IMG/VR virus record: IMGVR_UViG_3300022885_000061
Location: 1 to 31,104 of that record
Strand: one strand, 5' to 3'
Length of the DNA: 31,104 nt
DNA from: a virus
Lineage: Duplodnaviria > Caudoviricetes
Part shown: positions 3,737-15,883 of the stretch, in pieces
Numbering within the stretch: the first letter of the stretch is position 1
Layout: each line of letters starts with the position of its first letter
Program-made: the position numbers and the translations under genes
The notes under the pieces: generated by a model
Database searches by the model: none
Told to the model about the DNA's origin: nothing
What the model saw: only the letters and a program-made list of their open reading frames with translations

Positions 3737-3920
3737 CAAATGTCTCCTCTTTTTCCAGCAGTCGAGAAATTTCCTGTTGGCATATGTCAAGCATATGTAT
3801 CTTTCCTAGAATATACTTGTAATCTTCAATTTTTTCAACCCCTTGTGTCAAGGAATTCATTAAATCTCCCTTTAAAAGCTTTAGTTCTTTTTGAACATAA
3901 TAAATAGTGTGATCAGACAA
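3729..3920 (-). CDS. Small hypothetical protein
   Basis: 63 aa helical ORF overlapping both neighbours, consistent with translational coupling. Confidence 0.7.
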   Translation of the reverse strand: MSDHTIYYVQKELKLLKGDLMNSLTQGVEKIEDYKYILGKIHMLDICQQEISRLLEKEETFDD

Positions 3921-4539
3921 GGCAATTAATTCCAGGTACTAATTTTTGATAGGTAGTATCACTGTTAATACCTTTGCTAATAAACCATACAGACTCTTGA
4001 CTTGAATAAGTTGTATATTCAGGTTCTTTTACATGGTTAAGCCCTTGTTTCATTCCTTCTTGAACACTTTTTAAATAAAAATCATCCCCGAAAATTACTC
4101 CACCTTTTTTAACTTTAGGATACCAATTTATAATATCTTCTTTAACAGCTTCTAACTCATGAGCTCCGTCAATCATTAAAGCATCAATAGATTCATCTTT
4201 AAAATAATCTAGTATATCTTTATCATCGGATCTTCCTTTGTGTTGTATAACCATTTCTCTATTTAAAAAGAACTGTAAGTTATCTTTAAAAACAGAAGAA
4301 AAATCATTACCTGTTTTAAGAGAAGAATGTTCGCTTGAACCTTTAAAAGTATCTACAGAATGAATTCTAACTTTCATTTTTTCTGCATTCCAAAAATTAG
4401 TTGCTAAATACTTTGTAGATCTACCCATGAATGATCCTATTTCTACAATCGTTGATTCGTCGGGTAGTTCGGTTGCTAGTTTATCGTAAGCCTCGTGATA
4501 ATTAAACCAACCAGGTATCTTATAATAGTCATGCATCAT
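3913..4539 (-). CDS. Class I SAM-dependent methyltransferase (Methyltransf_24-like)
   Basis: VEIGSFMGRS, HSVDTF, LMIDGAH and KGGVIFGDDF motifs. Confidence 0.85.
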   Translation of the reverse strand: MMHDYYKIPGWFNYHEAYDKLATELPDESTIVEIGSFMGRSTKYLATNFWNAEKMKVRIHSVDTFKGSSEHSSLKTGNDFSSVFKDNLQFFLNREMVIQHKGRSDDKDILDYFKDESIDALMIDGAHELEAVKEDIINWYPKVKKGGVIFGDDFYLKSVQEGMKQGLNHVKEPEYTTYSSQESVWFISKGINSDTTYQKLVPGINCLV

Positions 4540-7592: not shown

Positions 7593-10437
7593 ATGATCCG
7601 TATATATCTGTTATAGAAACTAACCTATCTTTGTCAATAGTTCCACCTTCTTTTTTCCTATATAAATACATAGGTCCAGTCTGAGCTGAACTCGTGGATA
7701 TATCTAAAACGTACATAGGAACCGATTGAGGGTTAAATTCGTCAAACATAAATTGAGCCTCTTTAAGATCCTGTGTTGTATAATCATCACTTAGTTTAAA
7801 AGAACTATCTTGCATGACTCTACCTTCAGGAACTCTACCCTTGACAATTCTTTGTATAATTTCAGAACCATCCTCTTGTTTAAATGAAACAAAAGCTTTT
7901 GTATTTTCTAAGCCATAGCTATCATCAAAAGCCTTAATTTGTCGTAGTACATCCTCATCATCCATACTTTTTTTAAAATTAATTTGTGGTACTTCCTCTA
8001 TTATTTCACCAGATAATTCCTCAAAGGTTCCATCAGCTTGAAGTCTTTTACCAAAAAAACTAGCTTCAGGCTTGGAGGGATCTTGAATATTTTCTAGTCT
8101 AAGTTCTGATCCTGGATATTTCTTTTTAATATTTTTTAATTCTTGAATCATCTTTTTGTCATACAAATCTCTAAATCGTTTTGCAGCATCTCCTGTCTTA
8201 CCCCATCTTTTATTGGCTCCCACGTCAGCTGGCATAATAGCAATTTTCTTTATACCTTTATTTTGAGCATCTTTGATTGTAGCTTTTAAAAGAAGATCGA
8301 TATAATCCCCTGGTCTAGAAAAAGGAACAGGAGGAAAAGTGTTAAGCTCTTTAGTACCTATGGAGAAGGCTCTGCCACCACCTGATTCTACGTAATCGGC
8401 TAATTCTTTTGTAATATCAGTATCTGATACATTAGGAACACGAACTCCTTGTAATTTTTGCTCATATGTATGTTCACGATTCATTGAAGCTAAATCATCA
8501 AAAATTTTTATTTGTTTATTTTGAATACCAGAAATAGAATCTTCTAGTCTCGTTGTTTGTAGAGGTGATAGATTTTGTCTATCCTTAAACAATAATCCAT
8601 CGATTTCATCTTGAAGACTTATAAGATCTGTTTGAAGTGAGGATATTCTCTCACGACCAACATTAGTTGGAAAAGGTTTAGTAACACTCATATTTTCTAA
8701 TTCTTCTATAGTTCTTCCTCCCATATTTTTTTTTATTTCTTGAAGTTTTCTCTGAGCAATATCACGATCGTTTGCGTCTGATAGAGGGTTATTATAAATT
8801 TCATTCAGCTCTTCAGATTGTTTTTTTGCTCTTTTGACCATTGCATTAAGTCTTTGTTGTTCATTATTTACTGTTGTTAACAGATCTGTTTGAAGTTCTT
8901 GAATCACGGATACAGTTTGACCATTTGTGTTTTGATAATCAGCAACACGAGTAAAGCCTATAACATTCGGTTCTTCAAAGTGAGAACTTTGAACATAAGG
9001 ACTTCTGTCATTTGGAATAGGTCCTGACTGAATTACAATTTCACGATAATTCTCTCCAAAATTATCAATTGGAGCACTTCCAAAATTTTCGTGTCTTGGT
9101 CTACCTACGTAGTCAGTATACTCTCTTTGATCTCGAAGTGTTCCTAAATCTTCTTCATATTTTGGTTTATCTTTAACTTTTATTTCTATATTACCAACTG
9201 GAGATTCATTATAAATATCAATCAATTGCTCTCTAGATATTTTTTTTCCAGGATACATCTTATCGCTATCTATAAAAAAATCTTCCATACCAGAATCAAG
9301 AAGTTCTGTTTCAGGAGCTTTAAGTTCTCCTCCTTTTAAAAACTGTCTCCATGATTCAGGTGTTGCGTTCTTAGGAGCGTTAGCAGAATTTAATTTATCA
9401 ACTGTAAAAGATTTAAAAGCAAAATCATTATCACTAATTGATTTTACAGTTGGAAGTAATGTTTCAATTCCTACGTCTGCTCCACCCATATTTTGTGTAT
9501 CAACTAATTCATTGTATAGACCTACTTCCCTAAGATTTTTAGGAGTGGCTACACCTGGAGATGTTTTAAAAAGTTTATGGAGTTTAAACGGATTAAAAGC
9601 TGTGGCTCCTTCTAGTGATTTTTCAAAAGCATCTTCTTGTTCAAAAGCTGGATCTTTCATAAAACGATCGGACATAAAATCTACGTTCTGTGTAAAATCT
9701 TCTGCTGTTCCACCCAATGCAAAACCTTTAGGTTTTTTACCACCTAATCTAGTTTTATCACTAAATTTAAAAAGATTTTTGTCTACAAGTTCACCTATAA
9801 GGTCAGCTACAATTATTTTTTTTTGTTCAAGAGGTATATCTAAATTTTGAATTAGTTCTCTTGAATTATTACCGAGTGTTTTTGTAATCATCTGAGCTAC
9901 CTCAGGACCAAATTTTTTATAAATATATTTTACTAAATCGGCACCTCCTACAACTTCAAAAGCTCCAGCTATTACTCCCATATTTTCTTCCATCTGAGTT
10001 GAAGTTCCAGCTTTGATTTTTTCTTGTAAATCACTATAATATTTTGGATCAAATAAAAACTGAGCTGTTTCTCCAAGCATTTCAAAAGGAACTTGAATCT
10101 GAGATTTTAGTCCTTTCATTCCCGTATTTGTTCGAGCTATTTTCTGAAGTTCTCCTACAGGTACATCAGGACTAGATATTTTTTTTGCTACATAATCAAT
10201 AGGTTGTGCTATTCGTTTACCCGCTTGTAATAAAAGATCTCTTGAAAAATCACTAGCTACTCCTATGGGGGTCCCTTCACCAATCATAGGCTTTAAACCT
10301 GTATTTAAATCTGTAAAAAAATTTTTTAATTTTTCATACTGTCTTTCGTTTTCTGCTATTCTACGATCAATATTTTCATCTTGACTATAGGCCGGATCTT
10401 CATCGATAAGCATATCTATGTTTCTATAATCTACCAT
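7582..10437 (-). CDS. Large protein with GNAT-like/polyvalent-protein-type region; putative ejected virion protein
   Basis: 951 aa. NYREIVI...SHFEEPNVIGFTRV...IQELQTD, then LLKATIKDAQNKGIKKIAI...LYDK, a pattern resembling the C-terminal half of GNAT folds. Function is inferred. Confidence 0.5.
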   Translation of the reverse strand: MVDYRNIDMLIDEDPAYSQDENIDRRIAENERQYEKLKNFFTDLNTGLKPMIGEGTPIGVASDFSRDLLLQAGKRIAQPIDYVAKKISSPDVPVGELQKIARTNTGMKGLKSQIQVPFEMLGETAQFLFDPKYYSDLQEKIKAGTSTQMEENMGVIAGAFEVVGGADLVKYIYKKFGPEVAQMITKTLGNNSRELIQNLDIPLEQKKIIVADLIGELVDKNLFKFSDKTRLGGKKPKGFALGGTAEDFTQNVDFMSDRFMKDPAFEQEDAFEKSLEGATAFNPFKLHKLFKTSPGVATPKNLREVGLYNELVDTQNMGGADVGIETLLPTVKSISDNDFAFKSFTVDKLNSANAPKNATPESWRQFLKGGELKAPETELLDSGMEDFFIDSDKMYPGKKISREQLIDIYNESPVGNIEIKVKDKPKYEEDLGTLRDQREYTDYVGRPRHENFGSAPIDNFGENYREIVIQSGPIPNDRSPYVQSSHFEEPNVIGFTRVADYQNTNGQTVSVIQELQTDLLTTVNNEQQRLNAMVKRAKKQSEELNEIYNNPLSDANDRDIAQRKLQEIKKNMGGRTIEELENMSVTKPFPTNVGRERISSLQTDLISLQDEIDGLLFKDRQNLSPLQTTRLEDSISGIQNKQIKIFDDLASMNREHTYEQKLQGVRVPNVSDTDITKELADYVESGGGRAFSIGTKELNTFPPVPFSRPGDYIDLLLKATIKDAQNKGIKKIAIMPADVGANKRWGKTGDAAKRFRDLYDKKMIQELKNIKKKYPGSELRLENIQDPSKPEASFFGKRLQADGTFEELSGEIIEEVPQINFKKSMDDEDVLRQIKAFDDSYGLENTKAFVSFKQEDGSEIIQRIVKGRVPEGRVMQDSSFKLSDDYTTQDLKEAQFMFDEFNPQSVPMYVLDISTSSAQTGPMYLYRKKEGGTIDKDRLVSITDIYGSYGR

Positions 10438-11906
10438 TAGTAATACTCTGTCTCTCCGTGGTCCGTGGGCTCTTCTTCTTCATCATCGAATAACCGCACA
10501 AAATTGCCTTGTCTAAATCTCATTAAGGCTTGAGTCATAGAATCTACTAAGTCGTCATGTTCACCAAACGGGAACTGTGCACACTCTTCGACCATTTCTT
10601 CAGCCCATCTTTCGTCAGGTATCCACACTACTCCACTTTCGAACAACGGGGCAACTGCGTGTACCCTTGATACTTTATCATTCCCTTTACTAGGGGTAAA
10701 GTTAATTACAGGAATACCTAAGGCTCGTAGTTCTTGGATCAAGGGCAGTCCTGATGCTTTCGCTTCAACGATCACGGTCTCCGGTTCCCAGTATTTATAT
10801 TGTTCTATAGCTGCTTTCTTGAGTTCAGGGAACTCATAACGTTCCTTGATTGAATCTAATAATAAAATATTAGGGGTTACTTCGTCAGGATAGAATACAC
10901 CCCACGTTGTAATAGCACTATAATCCCCTGTTTCCTTTTTTGTAAACGCTGTATCATAACTTTGTATAACATGCTTCAACATAGGGATATCTTTTCTATC
11001 CCAAATTCTCCACCAGTCCCTTTTGATGAGAGCTCCTTCTTCACCTGTAGGATTTTGTTGCCACTGCGCTTGCCATTTTTGTTCTGTTAAAGATGCTTTG
11101 ACAGCTTCTAGTTCTTCGAGTTTCCAATAATTAGGCCAGACCGGGGTCCCTGAAGGAAGAATAGCTGGAAATTCTATAACATCCCATTGATCCGCTTTAG
11201 GTTCACCCATGGCTTTTTGTAATTGTCCTGTGATGTCTTTTTCAGACCAACGCGTCATAACTACAACGATCGAACCTCCAGGTTGCAAACGTTGACGAGG
11301 ACCCGATGTATACCATTCCCATGTATTATCCATTGCTGTCGAAGACAAGGCGTCTTGTTCAGAATGGGGATCATCAATAATAAGTAGATCAGCACCACGA
11401 CCAGTAATAGCACCACCCACACCCGCGCCGAAATATTCACCGCCATGATTCGTTTCCCAACGTCCCGCAGCTTTAGAATCTTCTGAGAGTTTAACATCTG
11501 GAAAAACTTTTGCATAATCATTAGAGTCAATAAGGTTCCTTACCTTACGACCAAATCTGTAAGACAGTTCAGCCGTGTGAGTTGTTTGTATAATCTTGGT
11601 CTGTGGTTTGTGGCCCAAGAGCCAAGCTGGAAAGAGGTAGGACGCAAATTCTGATTTTGTATGTCTCGGTGGCATGTTCACGATTAATCGTTTTATTTCA
11701 CCTGACAAGACCTTCTCAAACTTCTCCGCGATCATTCTATGATGATCAGATTCCACGAACCCTGGCCACACTGCTTTAACGAACGTTATAAAGGAGTCTC
11801 TTGACTTACTACTTAAATCTAATTGCGCTTTACGAAGTTCAAGTTTAAGCATTGCTTCTCTTGCTTCTTCATGCGTCATTGATTCGACATCAACGTCTAA
11901 TCTCAT
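10437..11906 (-). CDS. terL: Terminase large subunit
   Basis: MPPRHTKS (Walker A), LLIIDDP (Walker B), QSYDTA and HDDLVDS nuclease motifs. ATG 11906 preferred over TTG 11942; start uncertain. Confidence 0.95.
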   Translation of the reverse strand: MRLDVDVESMTHEEAREAMLKLELRKAQLDLSSKSRDSFITFVKAVWPGFVESDHHRMIAEKFEKVLSGEIKRLIVNMPPRHTKSEFASYLFPAWLLGHKPQTKIIQTTHTAELSYRFGRKVRNLIDSNDYAKVFPDVKLSEDSKAAGRWETNHGGEYFGAGVGGAITGRGADLLIIDDPHSEQDALSSTAMDNTWEWYTSGPRQRLQPGGSIVVVMTRWSEKDITGQLQKAMGEPKADQWDVIEFPAILPSGTPVWPNYWKLEELEAVKASLTEQKWQAQWQQNPTGEEGALIKRDWWRIWDRKDIPMLKHVIQSYDTAFTKKETGDYSAITTWGVFYPDEVTPNILLLDSIKERYEFPELKKAAIEQYKYWEPETVIVEAKASGLPLIQELRALGIPVINFTPSKGNDKVSRVHAVAPLFESGVVWIPDERWAEEMVEECAQFPFGEHDDLVDSMTQALMRFRQGNFVRLFDDEEEEPTDHGETEYY

Positions 11907-12084
11907 ACTCAGACTTATATCAGATGGAATTATTTGTGGCAATCACAACCTAGGTGCCCTTCTCATAGAAGCTAGGGGCCAAATAGGGGGGCGGGGGTCA
12001 GCCACAGACCTTGATCGGTGGAAAAGCGGTCTAGGAACCTTATTAAGTAGTAGGATTTTTTGAGAGCGGGGAAAATGGAGCGAG

Positions 12085-12113
12085 AAAGAAGGGGCGGGAG
12101 ATTATCCCGCCCC
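12085..12113 (-). terminator. Intrinsic terminator of cassette 1
   Basis: Perfect 9-bp stem GGGGCGGGA/TCCCGCCCC at 12091-12113, followed by TTCTTT on the minus strand. Confidence 0.85.
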
Positions 12114-12119
12114 AATCAA

Positions 12120-12362
12120 TTAAAAGTCTAAAGGATTAATTCTTCCTTGTAGCTTTGATAGTAGGTTACGACCCCATTGCTTTACCTGAGCGTCATCAGT
12201 AGTAGCAATAAGATTATAAATTTCACTACTAAGGAGATCAGCAATAGCACGATAGTCTACCTCTCTTCTTGTTTTGTTCTCACGCGTGATACGAGTTGTA
12301 TCATCAAGACGCTCTTCCACATCGGCAAAAGGTCTTAGCGTGAGATTGTTATCGTTAGGCAT
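12120..12362 (-). CDS. Hypothetical early protein, probably leaderless
   Basis: 80 aa ORF between its own promoter and terminator. No SD; ATG lies 6 nt after TAATAT. Confidence 0.75.
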   Translation of the reverse strand: MPNDNNLTLRPFADVEERLDDTTRITRENKTRREVDYRAIADLLSSEIYNLIATTDDAQVKQWGRNLLSKLQGRINPLDF

Positions 12363-12368
12363 ATAAGT

Positions 12369-12414
12369 ATATTATAGAAGTCCTAACTAATTGCAACTAA
12401 TTAGTTGTGGATAA
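12369..12414 (-). promoter_or_regulatory. Sigma70-like promoter P1 with upstream DnaA box
   Basis: TTATCCACA (12414-12406), then TTGCAA (12396-12391)-N16-TAATAT. Shares TTGYAATTAGTTAGGAC with P2. Confidence 0.7.
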
Positions 12415-12567
12415 CTTTATTTTCTTTTCAAGCACTCATCACCACATATTACCTACACACCTCATCGGCTTACCAGCAACGAAACCAAAATCAGCCTGGA
12501 GCCGTCCCGCGTGTAATAGTATATATAGTGTACATAGCTAATAGCTAAAAAGGCAATGGAGAATGGA

Positions 12568-12988: not shown

Positions 12989-13044
12989 AATATAGTTATG
13001 TCCTAACTAATTACAAGTTATTATGTTAATTAAGTTGTGGATAA
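12989..13044 (-). promoter_or_regulatory. Sigma70-like promoter P2 with upstream DnaA box
   Basis: TTATCCACA (13044-13036), then TTGTAA (13016-13011)-N16-TATATT. Confidence 0.7.
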
Positions 13045-13146
13045 CTTTTTAGAGGATAGCGATCGTGCAACGCTGAGCTGTGACCGGCGGAATAATATAA
13101 TTATAGTAGCCATTGTATAAAGGGTAGAAGGGTAATGGAGAATGGA

Positions 13147-13567
13147 GAAAAGGCTTTACCATTAGCCGAGGAACTTTGCACATACTCCACTTGTGACAAA
13201 GATTAATTGATGTACCTCTTGCCTGTTGGCAATGTGGATAGGTCTACAAATACCTCGTTGTAATGGACAGAGGGTGTTAACCATATTACAGAGCGAACCT
13301 CTGCCCAAGTTTGGAGGGGAAGGACGAAGTGTCAACCTTTATAATAAAAATACCCTTCCCCAATGTTCTTAGCGTTGCGTTTCCAAGATAAGAGATTAAG
13401 CTAGATAGGTAACGAACCCTAAGAACAAAATGGCTTACACCTCCTAAAACTCTTCCCTTATCTTTAGAGGCGTCTAACTTCCTCAGCGAATCCCTAGCTT
13501 CTGCTACGGGAGAAAATAAACAAATAGCTCCTAAATTGGACTCTTGTTGTTTATGATACATTCGCAT
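13147..13567 (-). ncRNA. Candidate large structured non-coding RNA (~420 nt), family unrecognised
   Basis: At least seven helices, most of 8-12 bp, a long-range closing helix (13487-13479 with 13173-13165) and two loop-loop complementarities. Several stem imperfections are G-U only on the minus strand. It fills a whole promoter-to-repeat cassette. Confidence 0.75.
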
Positions 13568-13572
13568 AATAG

Positions 13573-13604
13573 TAATATAGTGGGATTCTCTAGGATGTCA
13601 AGAG
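13573..13604 (-). promoter_or_regulatory. Promoter P3
   Basis: TTGACA (13601-13596)-N16-TATATT (13579-13574); 28 of 32 nt identical to P4. Confidence 0.8.
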
Positions 13605-14723: not shown

Positions 14724-15134
14724 CTAATGGAGATCGGTAGACTTCACGGGACTAGGAGCTCGCCAGGTACCCAGCAGTTCCAGAAGCTCTGGCCAGGTGC
14801 CTTGCTTAGAATTCCATAATGGAGGTTTATCAGCAATGGAGGATGGATCACGGACTATGGCCCCTGGATATAATCGGGTAGACCCTGTAAGAGGGTCCTT
14901 GGCCAGTACGAACACTGGACACCCAATGTTATAATGCTTATGTAGCCACGCAATTTGATGAGGACTGAACAGGAGCTTGTTATTTCTTATTATCTTTAAT
15001 TCAACCCAAAAAGGTCTTCTATAAAAACCAAACAAATCAGGTATTCCAAGTCCAGTATTTGATTCAATTCTTGTCCACACAACACCTTTTGTATTGTTCT
15101 TAACTTGTTTCCATAAATTATGCTCAGGTTTCAT
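14724..15134 (-). CDS. VRR-NUC/Holliday junction resolvase-like PD-(D/E)XK nuclease
   Basis: E..LW, RIE, GIPDL, WVELK and SPHQIAW motifs. Confidence 0.85.
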   Translation of the reverse strand: MKPEHNLWKQVKNNTKGVVWTRIESNTGLGIPDLFGFYRRPFWVELKIIRNNKLLFSPHQIAWLHKHYNIGCPVFVLAKDPLTGSTRLYPGAIVRDPSSIADKPPLWNSKQGTWPELLELLGTWRAPSPVKSTDLH

Positions 15135-15438
15135 GTTTTGTTATGTAACATTTCTCTGTTGTTAAATCCACATTGAGTATTTCTACTCCTAATTTTTTTT
15201 GAAGTTTTGTAGTGGGACGATCTATTCTAAATCCTTTTAGCTTACCTGTTAGTCTAAAGCTAACCGTCTTCACATCGTATAAATGAATTATACCGTTTGG
15301 ATCAACGGTGACTATATCAATACATCCTGTGTCATGAATGGTCTTGAATACTAAGTTGCCCTTCTTGAGCAACCACGTCAGAGCTATCGCTTCCGACAGG
15401 TTCCCCTTGTAATGAGTCGGATTCAATAATTTTGGCAT
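15124..15438 (-). CDS. PD-(D/E)XK endonuclease overlapping terS 3' end
   Basis: KGNLSEAIALTWLLKKG...DIV...DVKT. GGAG RBS before ATG 15438. Confidence 0.7.
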   Translation of the reverse strand: MPKLLNPTHYKGNLSEAIALTWLLKKGNLVFKTIHDTGCIDIVTVDPNGIIHLYDVKTVSFRLTGKLKGFRIDRPTTKLQKKLGVEILNVDLTTEKCYITKHET

Positions 15439-15883
15439 TGTCTCCGTTTTCTTGCAATTTTTTTCGTAATTCACTAAGCTTCTCCTCTACATCCTTGGCA
15501 GTCATCTGGTCAATACTTCCATGAAGAATTTCTTTTCTGTCAATGTATAAACCAGCAGCCATACCACGATATTTCTCTGCTGCAATCGCCCCGGTAAAAT
15601 TACCAGCAGCTACGGCTTCGTCACGTAATTTACCTAAAGCAGCTAAATGAGATTTATAATTAATGGAATATCTTCTAGATAACTCGTTACGTCTTGCTTC
15701 TATTTCAGTCACTACTAGAGGATAATATTTAGGGTTCTGTAATTTACTTGCCATCACAGTAGCACAGCTTTCTTCGTACCCAGCTTCAGTAGCACAATCT
15801 TTTCCACTCTGAAAAGTGCCTTTTGTGATCAAAATTTCCACAAATTTGCGTTGTTTTTCTGTTATATGAGGTACATTTGCCAT
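15332..15883 (-). CDS. terS: Terminase small subunit
   Basis: TEKQRKFV...A.EAGY......ASKL HTH, followed by AIAAEKYRGMAAGLY. Confidence 0.85.
   Translation of the reverse strand: MANVPHITEKQRKFVEILITKGTFQSGKDCATEAGYEESCATVMASKLQNPKYYPLVVTEIEARRNELSRRYSINYKSHLAALGKLRDEAVAAGNFTGAIAAEKYRGMAAGLYIDRKEILHGSIDQMTAKDVEEKLSELRKKLQENGDNAKIIESDSLQGEPVGSDSSDVVAQEGQLSIQDHS

Follow-up and report, generated by a model that had tools for sequence, protein, structure and literature searches.

Between terS (positions 15332-15883) and terL (10437-11942) of a marine phage lies a stretch of about 420 nt whose minus strand is densely paired, and this raises the question of whether it specifies one class of large RNA, as the original prediction held, or something built differently. 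The window, the whole 31,104-nt stretch of DNA analysed, is a fragment (52% complete, CheckV) of an HTVC023P-type marine phage related to the Pelagibacter phages HTVC023P and HTVC027P and to 023Pt_psg01, with a DNA polymerase 49-53% and a major capsid protein 72-77% identical to theirs. A structured minus-strand RNA is indeed present, unmatched in Rfam, with its own promoter and gained or lost as a cassette, and all of the complementarities listed for it can be found. A single class of ~420-nt RNA, however, is replaced by a chain of separately folding units, namely A, pseudoknot B, a variable hairpin, D and the three-way junction C, the number and order of which vary (Table 1). As judged from sequence, the units are real, orphan structured RNAs of phages that match no known family.

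Table 1. Features of the RNA locus (window coordinates).
Feature	Position	Strand	Remarks
Sigma-70-type promoter (TTGACA, 16 nt, TATATT)	13574..13601	-	11/12 match
Leaderless open frame, 93 codons (80-160 in relatives)	13286..13567	-	through A, E, B into D; predicted
Unit A, three-way junction and two hairpins	13486..13565	-	closing stem 13565-60/13491-86; z -3.39
Small hairpin E (GAGG/CCUC)	13467..13484	-	weakly supported
Unit B, pseudoknot	13364..13464	-	long stem P1 and P2
B P1	13464-54/13395-85, 13447-44/13404-01, 13442-39/13410-07	-
B P2	13427-19/13372-64	-
Variable hairpin after B	13316..13361	-	window allele in 5/22 variants
Unit D, 9-bp stem and invariant 24-nt loop	13265..13306	-	nearly invariant; indel positions and two G-U exchanges
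Unit C, three-way junction	13167..13257	-	closing stem 13257-53/13171-67
Cassette-end repeat (TTCTCCATTCTCCATT family)	13119..13153	-	one of 4 copies, spacing 579-804 nt

The minus strand of the locus folds at -125.5 kcal/mol and beats 100 of 100 dinucleotide shuffles (z -3.51), but this is not distinctive because 5 of 31 tiled 421-nt windows of the contig also reach z ≤ -3 (12 shuffles each, a noisy estimate); fold energy therefore says little by itself and was dropped as proof of an RNA. A further strongly folding stretch lies upstream of terL (11942-12420), where the tile at 12001 has z -6.2 (12 shuffles) and a terminator rich in G+C occupies 12113-12091. Nothing in Rfam matched the locus at E ≤ 10, nor did a scan of the whole window give one for it, and ARAGORN called no tRNA or tmRNA gene on the locus. 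Neither source gave a match for tmRNA, RNase P, tRNA or group I and II introns, and the Rfam models of ROOL, GOLLD and the known self-cleaving ribozymes did not match, as was also the case for manA RNA (RF01745) in the window and for Flavobacterium-1 RNA (RF02976) in the window and in five contigs that have B or C. Rfam gave no support for resemblances to rRNA, T-box, group II intron domain V, twister and preQ1-I. A blastn comparison of the window RNA and three related arrays with cultured phages returned nothing or short chance matches only, and no cultured carrier is known since the models of B and C give nothing below E 0.4 on the isolates HTVC023P, HTVC027P and 023Pt_psg01. No description of these units was found in the literature, where the alignments of Fremin et al. 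(2023; PMC10690425) lay outside the comparison; that study has candidates without names, and B or C may be one of them.

The case for separate units is carried by B and C, each of which recurs on its own and covaries. For B, the pattern matches kept as true were 32 of 40 in viral sequences and 67 of 68 in metagenomes (the other 8 and 1 were dropped as chance, by eye or by a stricter pattern), and for C, 29 of 32 viral matches were kept and 3 dropped in the same way; many of these loci are redundant. In an alignment of 22 B sequences 91% of cells are paired, compared with 30-44% in slid controls, and four pairs, three of them in P2 and the fourth in P1, have changes in both partners, while in 15 C sequences 92.5% of cells are paired and 18 of 35 pairs show two-sided change; 0 of 500 shuffles reached the score in either case, counts that are not probabilities because the shuffles ignore relatedness. 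The segments GUAAGCCA, GGUUCGU and AAACGCAACG are conserved in B, although the invariance of the B and C motifs is partly built in because they were in the search patterns. The two inner helices of B never vary and are unproven. Of the pairings first proposed here, helix 13427-19/13372-64 is upheld by compensatory changes, and 13464-54 is complementary to 13395-85 as stated, but the two strands are the base of the long stem P1 of B and make no loop-loop contact. Other lineages have different complementary strands at this outer P1 position (by eye). No slippery site was seen by eye before B. In three loci (L089, L096 and L103) a hairpin unit with a UGAUGA loop, which presumably is like the box C or K-loop motif, stands ~80-125 nt before B.

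For C, an initial model that had a second pseudoknot and a P4 of 3 bp gave way to one with the covarying P4 given by RNAalifold, and a loop-loop pair that is predicted in it, UCCAC (13238-34) with GUGGA (13190-86), shows just one one-sided change. The proposed long-range helix lies at 13487-79/13173-65 and does enclose exactly 305 nt, but its probability is 0.02 compared with 0.97 for the local 13257-53/13171-67, and its exact 3′ strand is found in only 7 of 22 relatives. It fails because this 3′ strand is the closing stem of C, and C is present in 10 and missing in 12 of the 22 distinct full-length relatives. The same closing stem is overlapped by the GGCU/AGCC hairpin at which the RNA was said to end; this has only 4 bp and was not called as a terminator. 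Three loci carry divergent manA-like RNAs, below the Rfam gathering score, which lie 140-870 nt upstream of C and share its strand (L149:160-360, E 7e-5; L154:153-333, E 2e-8; L159:1343-1522, E 7e-7).

The remaining units are more local. Unit A has been seen only in the HTVC023P-type family of the window, where the loops of its two hairpins are swapped among relatives; helix 13554-49/13521-16 and hairpin 13511-13491, both correctly foreseen, are kept in 17-18 of 18 relatives despite these swaps, so that the support for A is an indel pattern and not covariation because its stems are nearly invariant. Hairpin E resembles one embedded in another unit of other phages, and its pattern, which misfits the window's own letters, gave 11 matches, of which 6 are in that other kind of setting, within another unit. 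It may compete with the B stem. The proposed helix 13473-62/13449-37 is ambiguous, having one U-A/G-C exchange and being paired in 13 of 18 relatives; the B stem that competes for the same base is paired in 17 of 18. A single base, 13445, co-varies with both 13466 (paired in 13/18) and 13403 (17/18), which hints at two exclusive folds or, alternatively, may reflect two haplotypes.

Unit D, whose helix 13306-298/13273-65 is paired in 18 of 18 relatives with two G-U exchanges, as had been proposed, has a loop in which lie both the palindrome GUUAAC (13281-76) and the codon that ends the frame of the window variant. Arrays with another 5′ part (L213, L214) likewise have D after B, and in viral_contigs its pattern occurs only in the 6 contigs of the family. 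Unit D was presumed to resemble the preQ1-I riboswitch and was rejected as one (RF00522; 0 matches at E ≤ 10, 11 candidates scored). The hairpin at 13361-13316, as originally drawn, has a pairing probability of 0.95, and it bears GUUGAC (13336-31), where other alleles often have a true palindrome such as GAUAUC; the GGUUGACAC hairpin is present in 5 of the 22 distinct full-length relatives. Among 24 types of the hairpin after B, which are partly related by descent, 13 have self-complementary hexamers compared with 4.4 expected, and several different palindromes are represented. For all hairpins of the arrays the count is 18 of 84 (11.2 expected), with 17 of 133 (17.2 expected) in the control and a Fisher p of 0.13. 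Palindromic loops are thus enriched in the post-B hairpin and only weakly so elsewhere. GUUGAC and GUUAAC of the window could each pair with themselves and with each other, and self-association through these loops is plausible from their sequence. Short A/U-rich linkers (AAAAGUUU, AAACUU) often join units (window 13363-13361 and 13312-13307; L104, L110, L186), and could be points of RNase E cutting or of recombination.

The units are combined differently in different phages. B and C are mostly found apart, in unrelated phages and beside different genes, and when 46 arrays were compared all against all, they shared segments in changing combinations. C stands alone behind a promoter in L020-L022 and L157 and before a terminator-like hairpin in L156 (by eye), and in two other lineages (L110/L126 and L123/L124) B arrays end in a terminator-like hairpin that is followed by a new promoter (by eye). 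The neighbours of arrays include primase-helicase, SSB/RecE-like, terS, repressor-like and unknown genes; among 57 chosen flanking ORFs (within ~1.2 kb) there was no reverse transcriptase (RT), no shared nuclease and none common to all arrays, nor was an RT seen among these together with 13 window proteins compared with PHROGs, the genomes being fragments. A phage with a terL fragment only 68% identical (over 283 residues) has an RNA 88% identical with long identical stretches, which points to exchange between phages. The terL-linked loci gave weak matches to parts of the RNA only, from which the patterns were built, and two exact patterns found no true copy in GTDB genomes (0 matches, and 2 matches without the stems). 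A, E, B and D stay together in 22 variants, which are recombinants of a few haplotypes and not independent samples, and the space between B and D accommodates inserts of 0-198 nt. Two further units were noticed in other loci. Unit F, a probable pseudoknot of ~85 nt (L084:4305-4391; L099, L138, L256-L262), lies between D and C in some relatives and elsewhere occurs alone or with other units, and an H-type pseudoknot that has a stem of 7 bp and an inner hairpin open to exchange is found in L097, L103, L110, L155, L247-L255 and L260, where its first stem appears by eye to covary.

Between terS and terL the locus belongs to a series of cassettes that have a sigma-70-type promoter first and a common repeat last, and the cassette promoters at 13601 and 14405 both match the consensus at 11 of 12 positions, in agreement with the proposed start at promoter P3. 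Among strains with 99-100% identical terL that cover the locus, the RNA is present in 4 of 6 and absent in 2 (L003, L006), and the latter are joined at the cassette-end repeat, where recombination likely removes the cassette. In L084 and L088 a gene comes after C, and a run of unrecorded kind represents a strain with extra sequence at that place; the window, with no gene in its cassette, hence shows one variant among others. An identical 16-nt repeat (12403-12418 and 13033-13048) precedes two cassette promoters and holds TTATCCACA, which we take to be a DnaA-box-like sequence.

A further feature of the locus is its reading frame. The start predicted from the promoter sequence, 13567, is the A of an AUG that is 7 nt after the -10 hexamer in all 22 variants, with identical promoter-to-AUG spacing, and that begins a frame 80-160 codons long. 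In 22 of 22 variants this frame has 0 stops as far as the end of B, where each other frame has 5-10, and it stays open at least until D, while a shuffled sequence stayed open to the end of B in 85 of 20,000 trials (0.004 per given start). The alleles of the hairpins before B, with lengths of 6, 27, 27, 36 and 39 and of 14, 20, 26, 26 and 29, all keep the frame, and the post-B alleles (0-198 nt) occur in all three frames, the used frame having 0 stops over 646 nt compared with 11 and 12. This conservation is free of protein-search bias because the 22 variants were found mostly by DNA patterns. B and C in other phages have no such frame, short +1-type frames being seen in 5 of 40 loci with none reaching B or C, and a general leaderless frame through all arrays was not found outside the window family. 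Since the frame is kept through the 5′ swaps and the peptide is free after B, selection is read here as probably acting for ribosome passage and not for a protein, the peptide being incidental. What is new is that the frame of the predicted +1 AUG is kept in all variants while the peptide after B is free. Selection for an open frame without selection for its peptide is unusual and lets ribosome passage on a structured RNA be tested.

The explanation preferred here, tentatively and by analogy, is that the locus carries a chain of units that are exchanged among marine phages and likely act early and in trans as decoys for host factors. The chain would be transcribed early from its own promoter, as suggested by the host-type promoters between terS and terL, and would act in trans, each unit binding and titrating a host factor, which most likely is a protein of defence or regulation, with palindromic loops possibly allowing self-association that raises avidity. 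The frame would serve as a ribosome track that guards a long transcript against polarity or decay and hands ribosomes to the next gene, with the peptide incidental. A role in trans is favoured because the units are portable, arrays end in terminator-like hairpins before a new promoter, and two exact patterns gave no cellular copy, and the compact knotted cores of B and C, with invariant junction bases in their models, would fit a binding surface. The decoy itself is reached by elimination and analogy, since the units yielded neither a binding partner or ligand nor a counterpart in a host, and against the ribosome track, translation would unfold the units that it crosses. It is possible, though doubtful, that the chains are an RNA-only counter-defence toolkit that combines swapped aptamer-like folds, early chains, palindromic clustering and a ribosome-escort ORF. 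If this were true, each fold would sponge a host immune protein or signalling molecule, and the folds would be swapped between phage families that are unrelated. Phage counter-defence and host takeover have been studied almost only as proteins, and a portable pool of RNAs would be a second layer; B and C, with ~90-100 nt and covariation-based models, are small enough for direct assays of cleavage, ligand binding and multimerisation.

What lies after D could equally well, on sequence, fit a role in cis. A gene is found 28-217 nt after D in 19 of 22 variants, and the frame stops within the D loop in 7 variants and within an inserted unit in one; in 7 more its stop overlaps the next start codon, and in the remaining 7 it runs 14 nt past that codon. 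The units might be a leader that controls the next early gene, by attenuation or translational coupling, through ribosomes from the +1 AUG together with a ligand or protein bound at B, C or D. The base that covaries with two exclusive helices is switch-like, CUC of the D loop could pair with a downstream GAG of the ribosome-binding site, and the manA-like RNAs near C in L149, L154 and L159 are of a kind that has been proposed as a riboswitch candidate (PMC2864571). Such a leader is nevertheless unlikely, as the same units precede unrelated genes or terminator-like hairpins, there is no gene in the cassette of the window, L008 or L227, B and C elsewhere lack the frame, and D fails the PreQ1 model.

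Whether the transcript is cut bears on a third reading, that B and C are new small ribozymes that cleave the early transcript. Parts of the stretch are contained in 14 RNA runs from 11 studies, and in 6 of the 7 runs compared RNA-library contigs lie on the locus, between 13223 and 13557; none is upstream of 13557, where a run of unrecorded kind continues across, and run X9 has no contig on the RNA at 90% likeness. These contigs are a weak hint that the locus is transcribed, as the runs were chosen for containing the stretch, some of the contigs might stem from carried-over DNA, and a contig reveals nothing of strand or level. Cover of C is slight and uninformative, but contigs cross B unbroken (13284-13546 and 13268-13521), which is evidence against cutting there even if an uncut precursor could explain it, and an open frame through B argues against constitutive cutting at B. 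Knotted folds of 90-100 nt with invariant junction bases and free peripheral stems are built like known self-cleaving classes (PMC5737381), and are portable and partner-free, yet with no ribozyme matched in Rfam this reading is improbable.

That the RNA has a dual function, with an overlapping protein of 80-160 aa or a core of 45 residues under selection, has poor prospects too. It would explain why the frame survives all 5′ indels with no premature stop in 22 variants, against a chance of 0.004 to the end of B. However, the 35 protein matches of the frame product are all ≥65% identical with unrelated C-termini read in all three frames, there are no distant relatives and no PHROG family, many replacements in the core (Y/N, S/D, L/F) track RNA pairing, and the Atlas model is poor (pLDDT 0.37). 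Of the refuting outcome that had been considered, homologues that conserve the 93-aa frame with synonymous bias, the frame itself is seen in all 22 relatives, but not its length or C-terminus, and substitutions are few. Least probable is a single ornate RNA of ~420 nt, or an RNA-only cage like ROOL or GOLLD, that needs its whole length, since the cohesion of A-E-B-D and the palindromes of the post-B hairpin and the invariant D loop are outweighed by a long-range helix that is not conserved, a C that is often absent, the inserts between B and D, and the occurrence of B, C and D in other combinations.

Comparison with known systems bears on the preferred reading of exchangeable host-factor decoys. 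ROOL and GOLLD (PMC12286853) are likewise phage-encoded, pseudoknotted and without a known partner protein, and kissing loops could join copies, but they are single large folds with conserved long-range structure, whereas the phages here freely trade units of ~40-100 nt. A conserved fold that spans the full length is absent here, given the variable presence of C and the unsupported helix, and the window RNA has no match to their Rfam models and no tRNA neighbours. Closer in arrangement is the manA/wcaG/abiF cluster of cyanophage S-CREM1, in which several orphan structured RNAs stand side by side in a marine phage (PMC9964418; motifs in PMC2864571), and manA-like sequences occur near C in three related loci. 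The window units match none of these families, however, and unit-wise exchange and a frame-locked leaderless ORF are not known to be described for the S-CREM1 cluster. The UG27 systems (bioRxiv 10.64898/2026.09.22.753630) are also phage arrays of pseudoknotted units gained and lost singly, but their units have one fold and stand beside an RT and two accessory genes, whereas here the folds differ and no RT is among the flanking ORFs. An RNA by which a phage neutralises a host defence protein is exemplified by the antitoxin mimic pseudo-ToxI of phiTE (PMC10286901), in which a single unit, derived from a host antitoxin that is known, is repeated; for B and C no counterpart in a host was found, and tandem repeats of one unit, as in type III antitoxin mimics, are not found, the units differing from each other.

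Elsewhere in the window, a methyltransferase-like ORF (by eye) lies among the head genes at 3913-4539, and terS overlaps a 116-aa ORF of PHROG 5018 (15124-15883).
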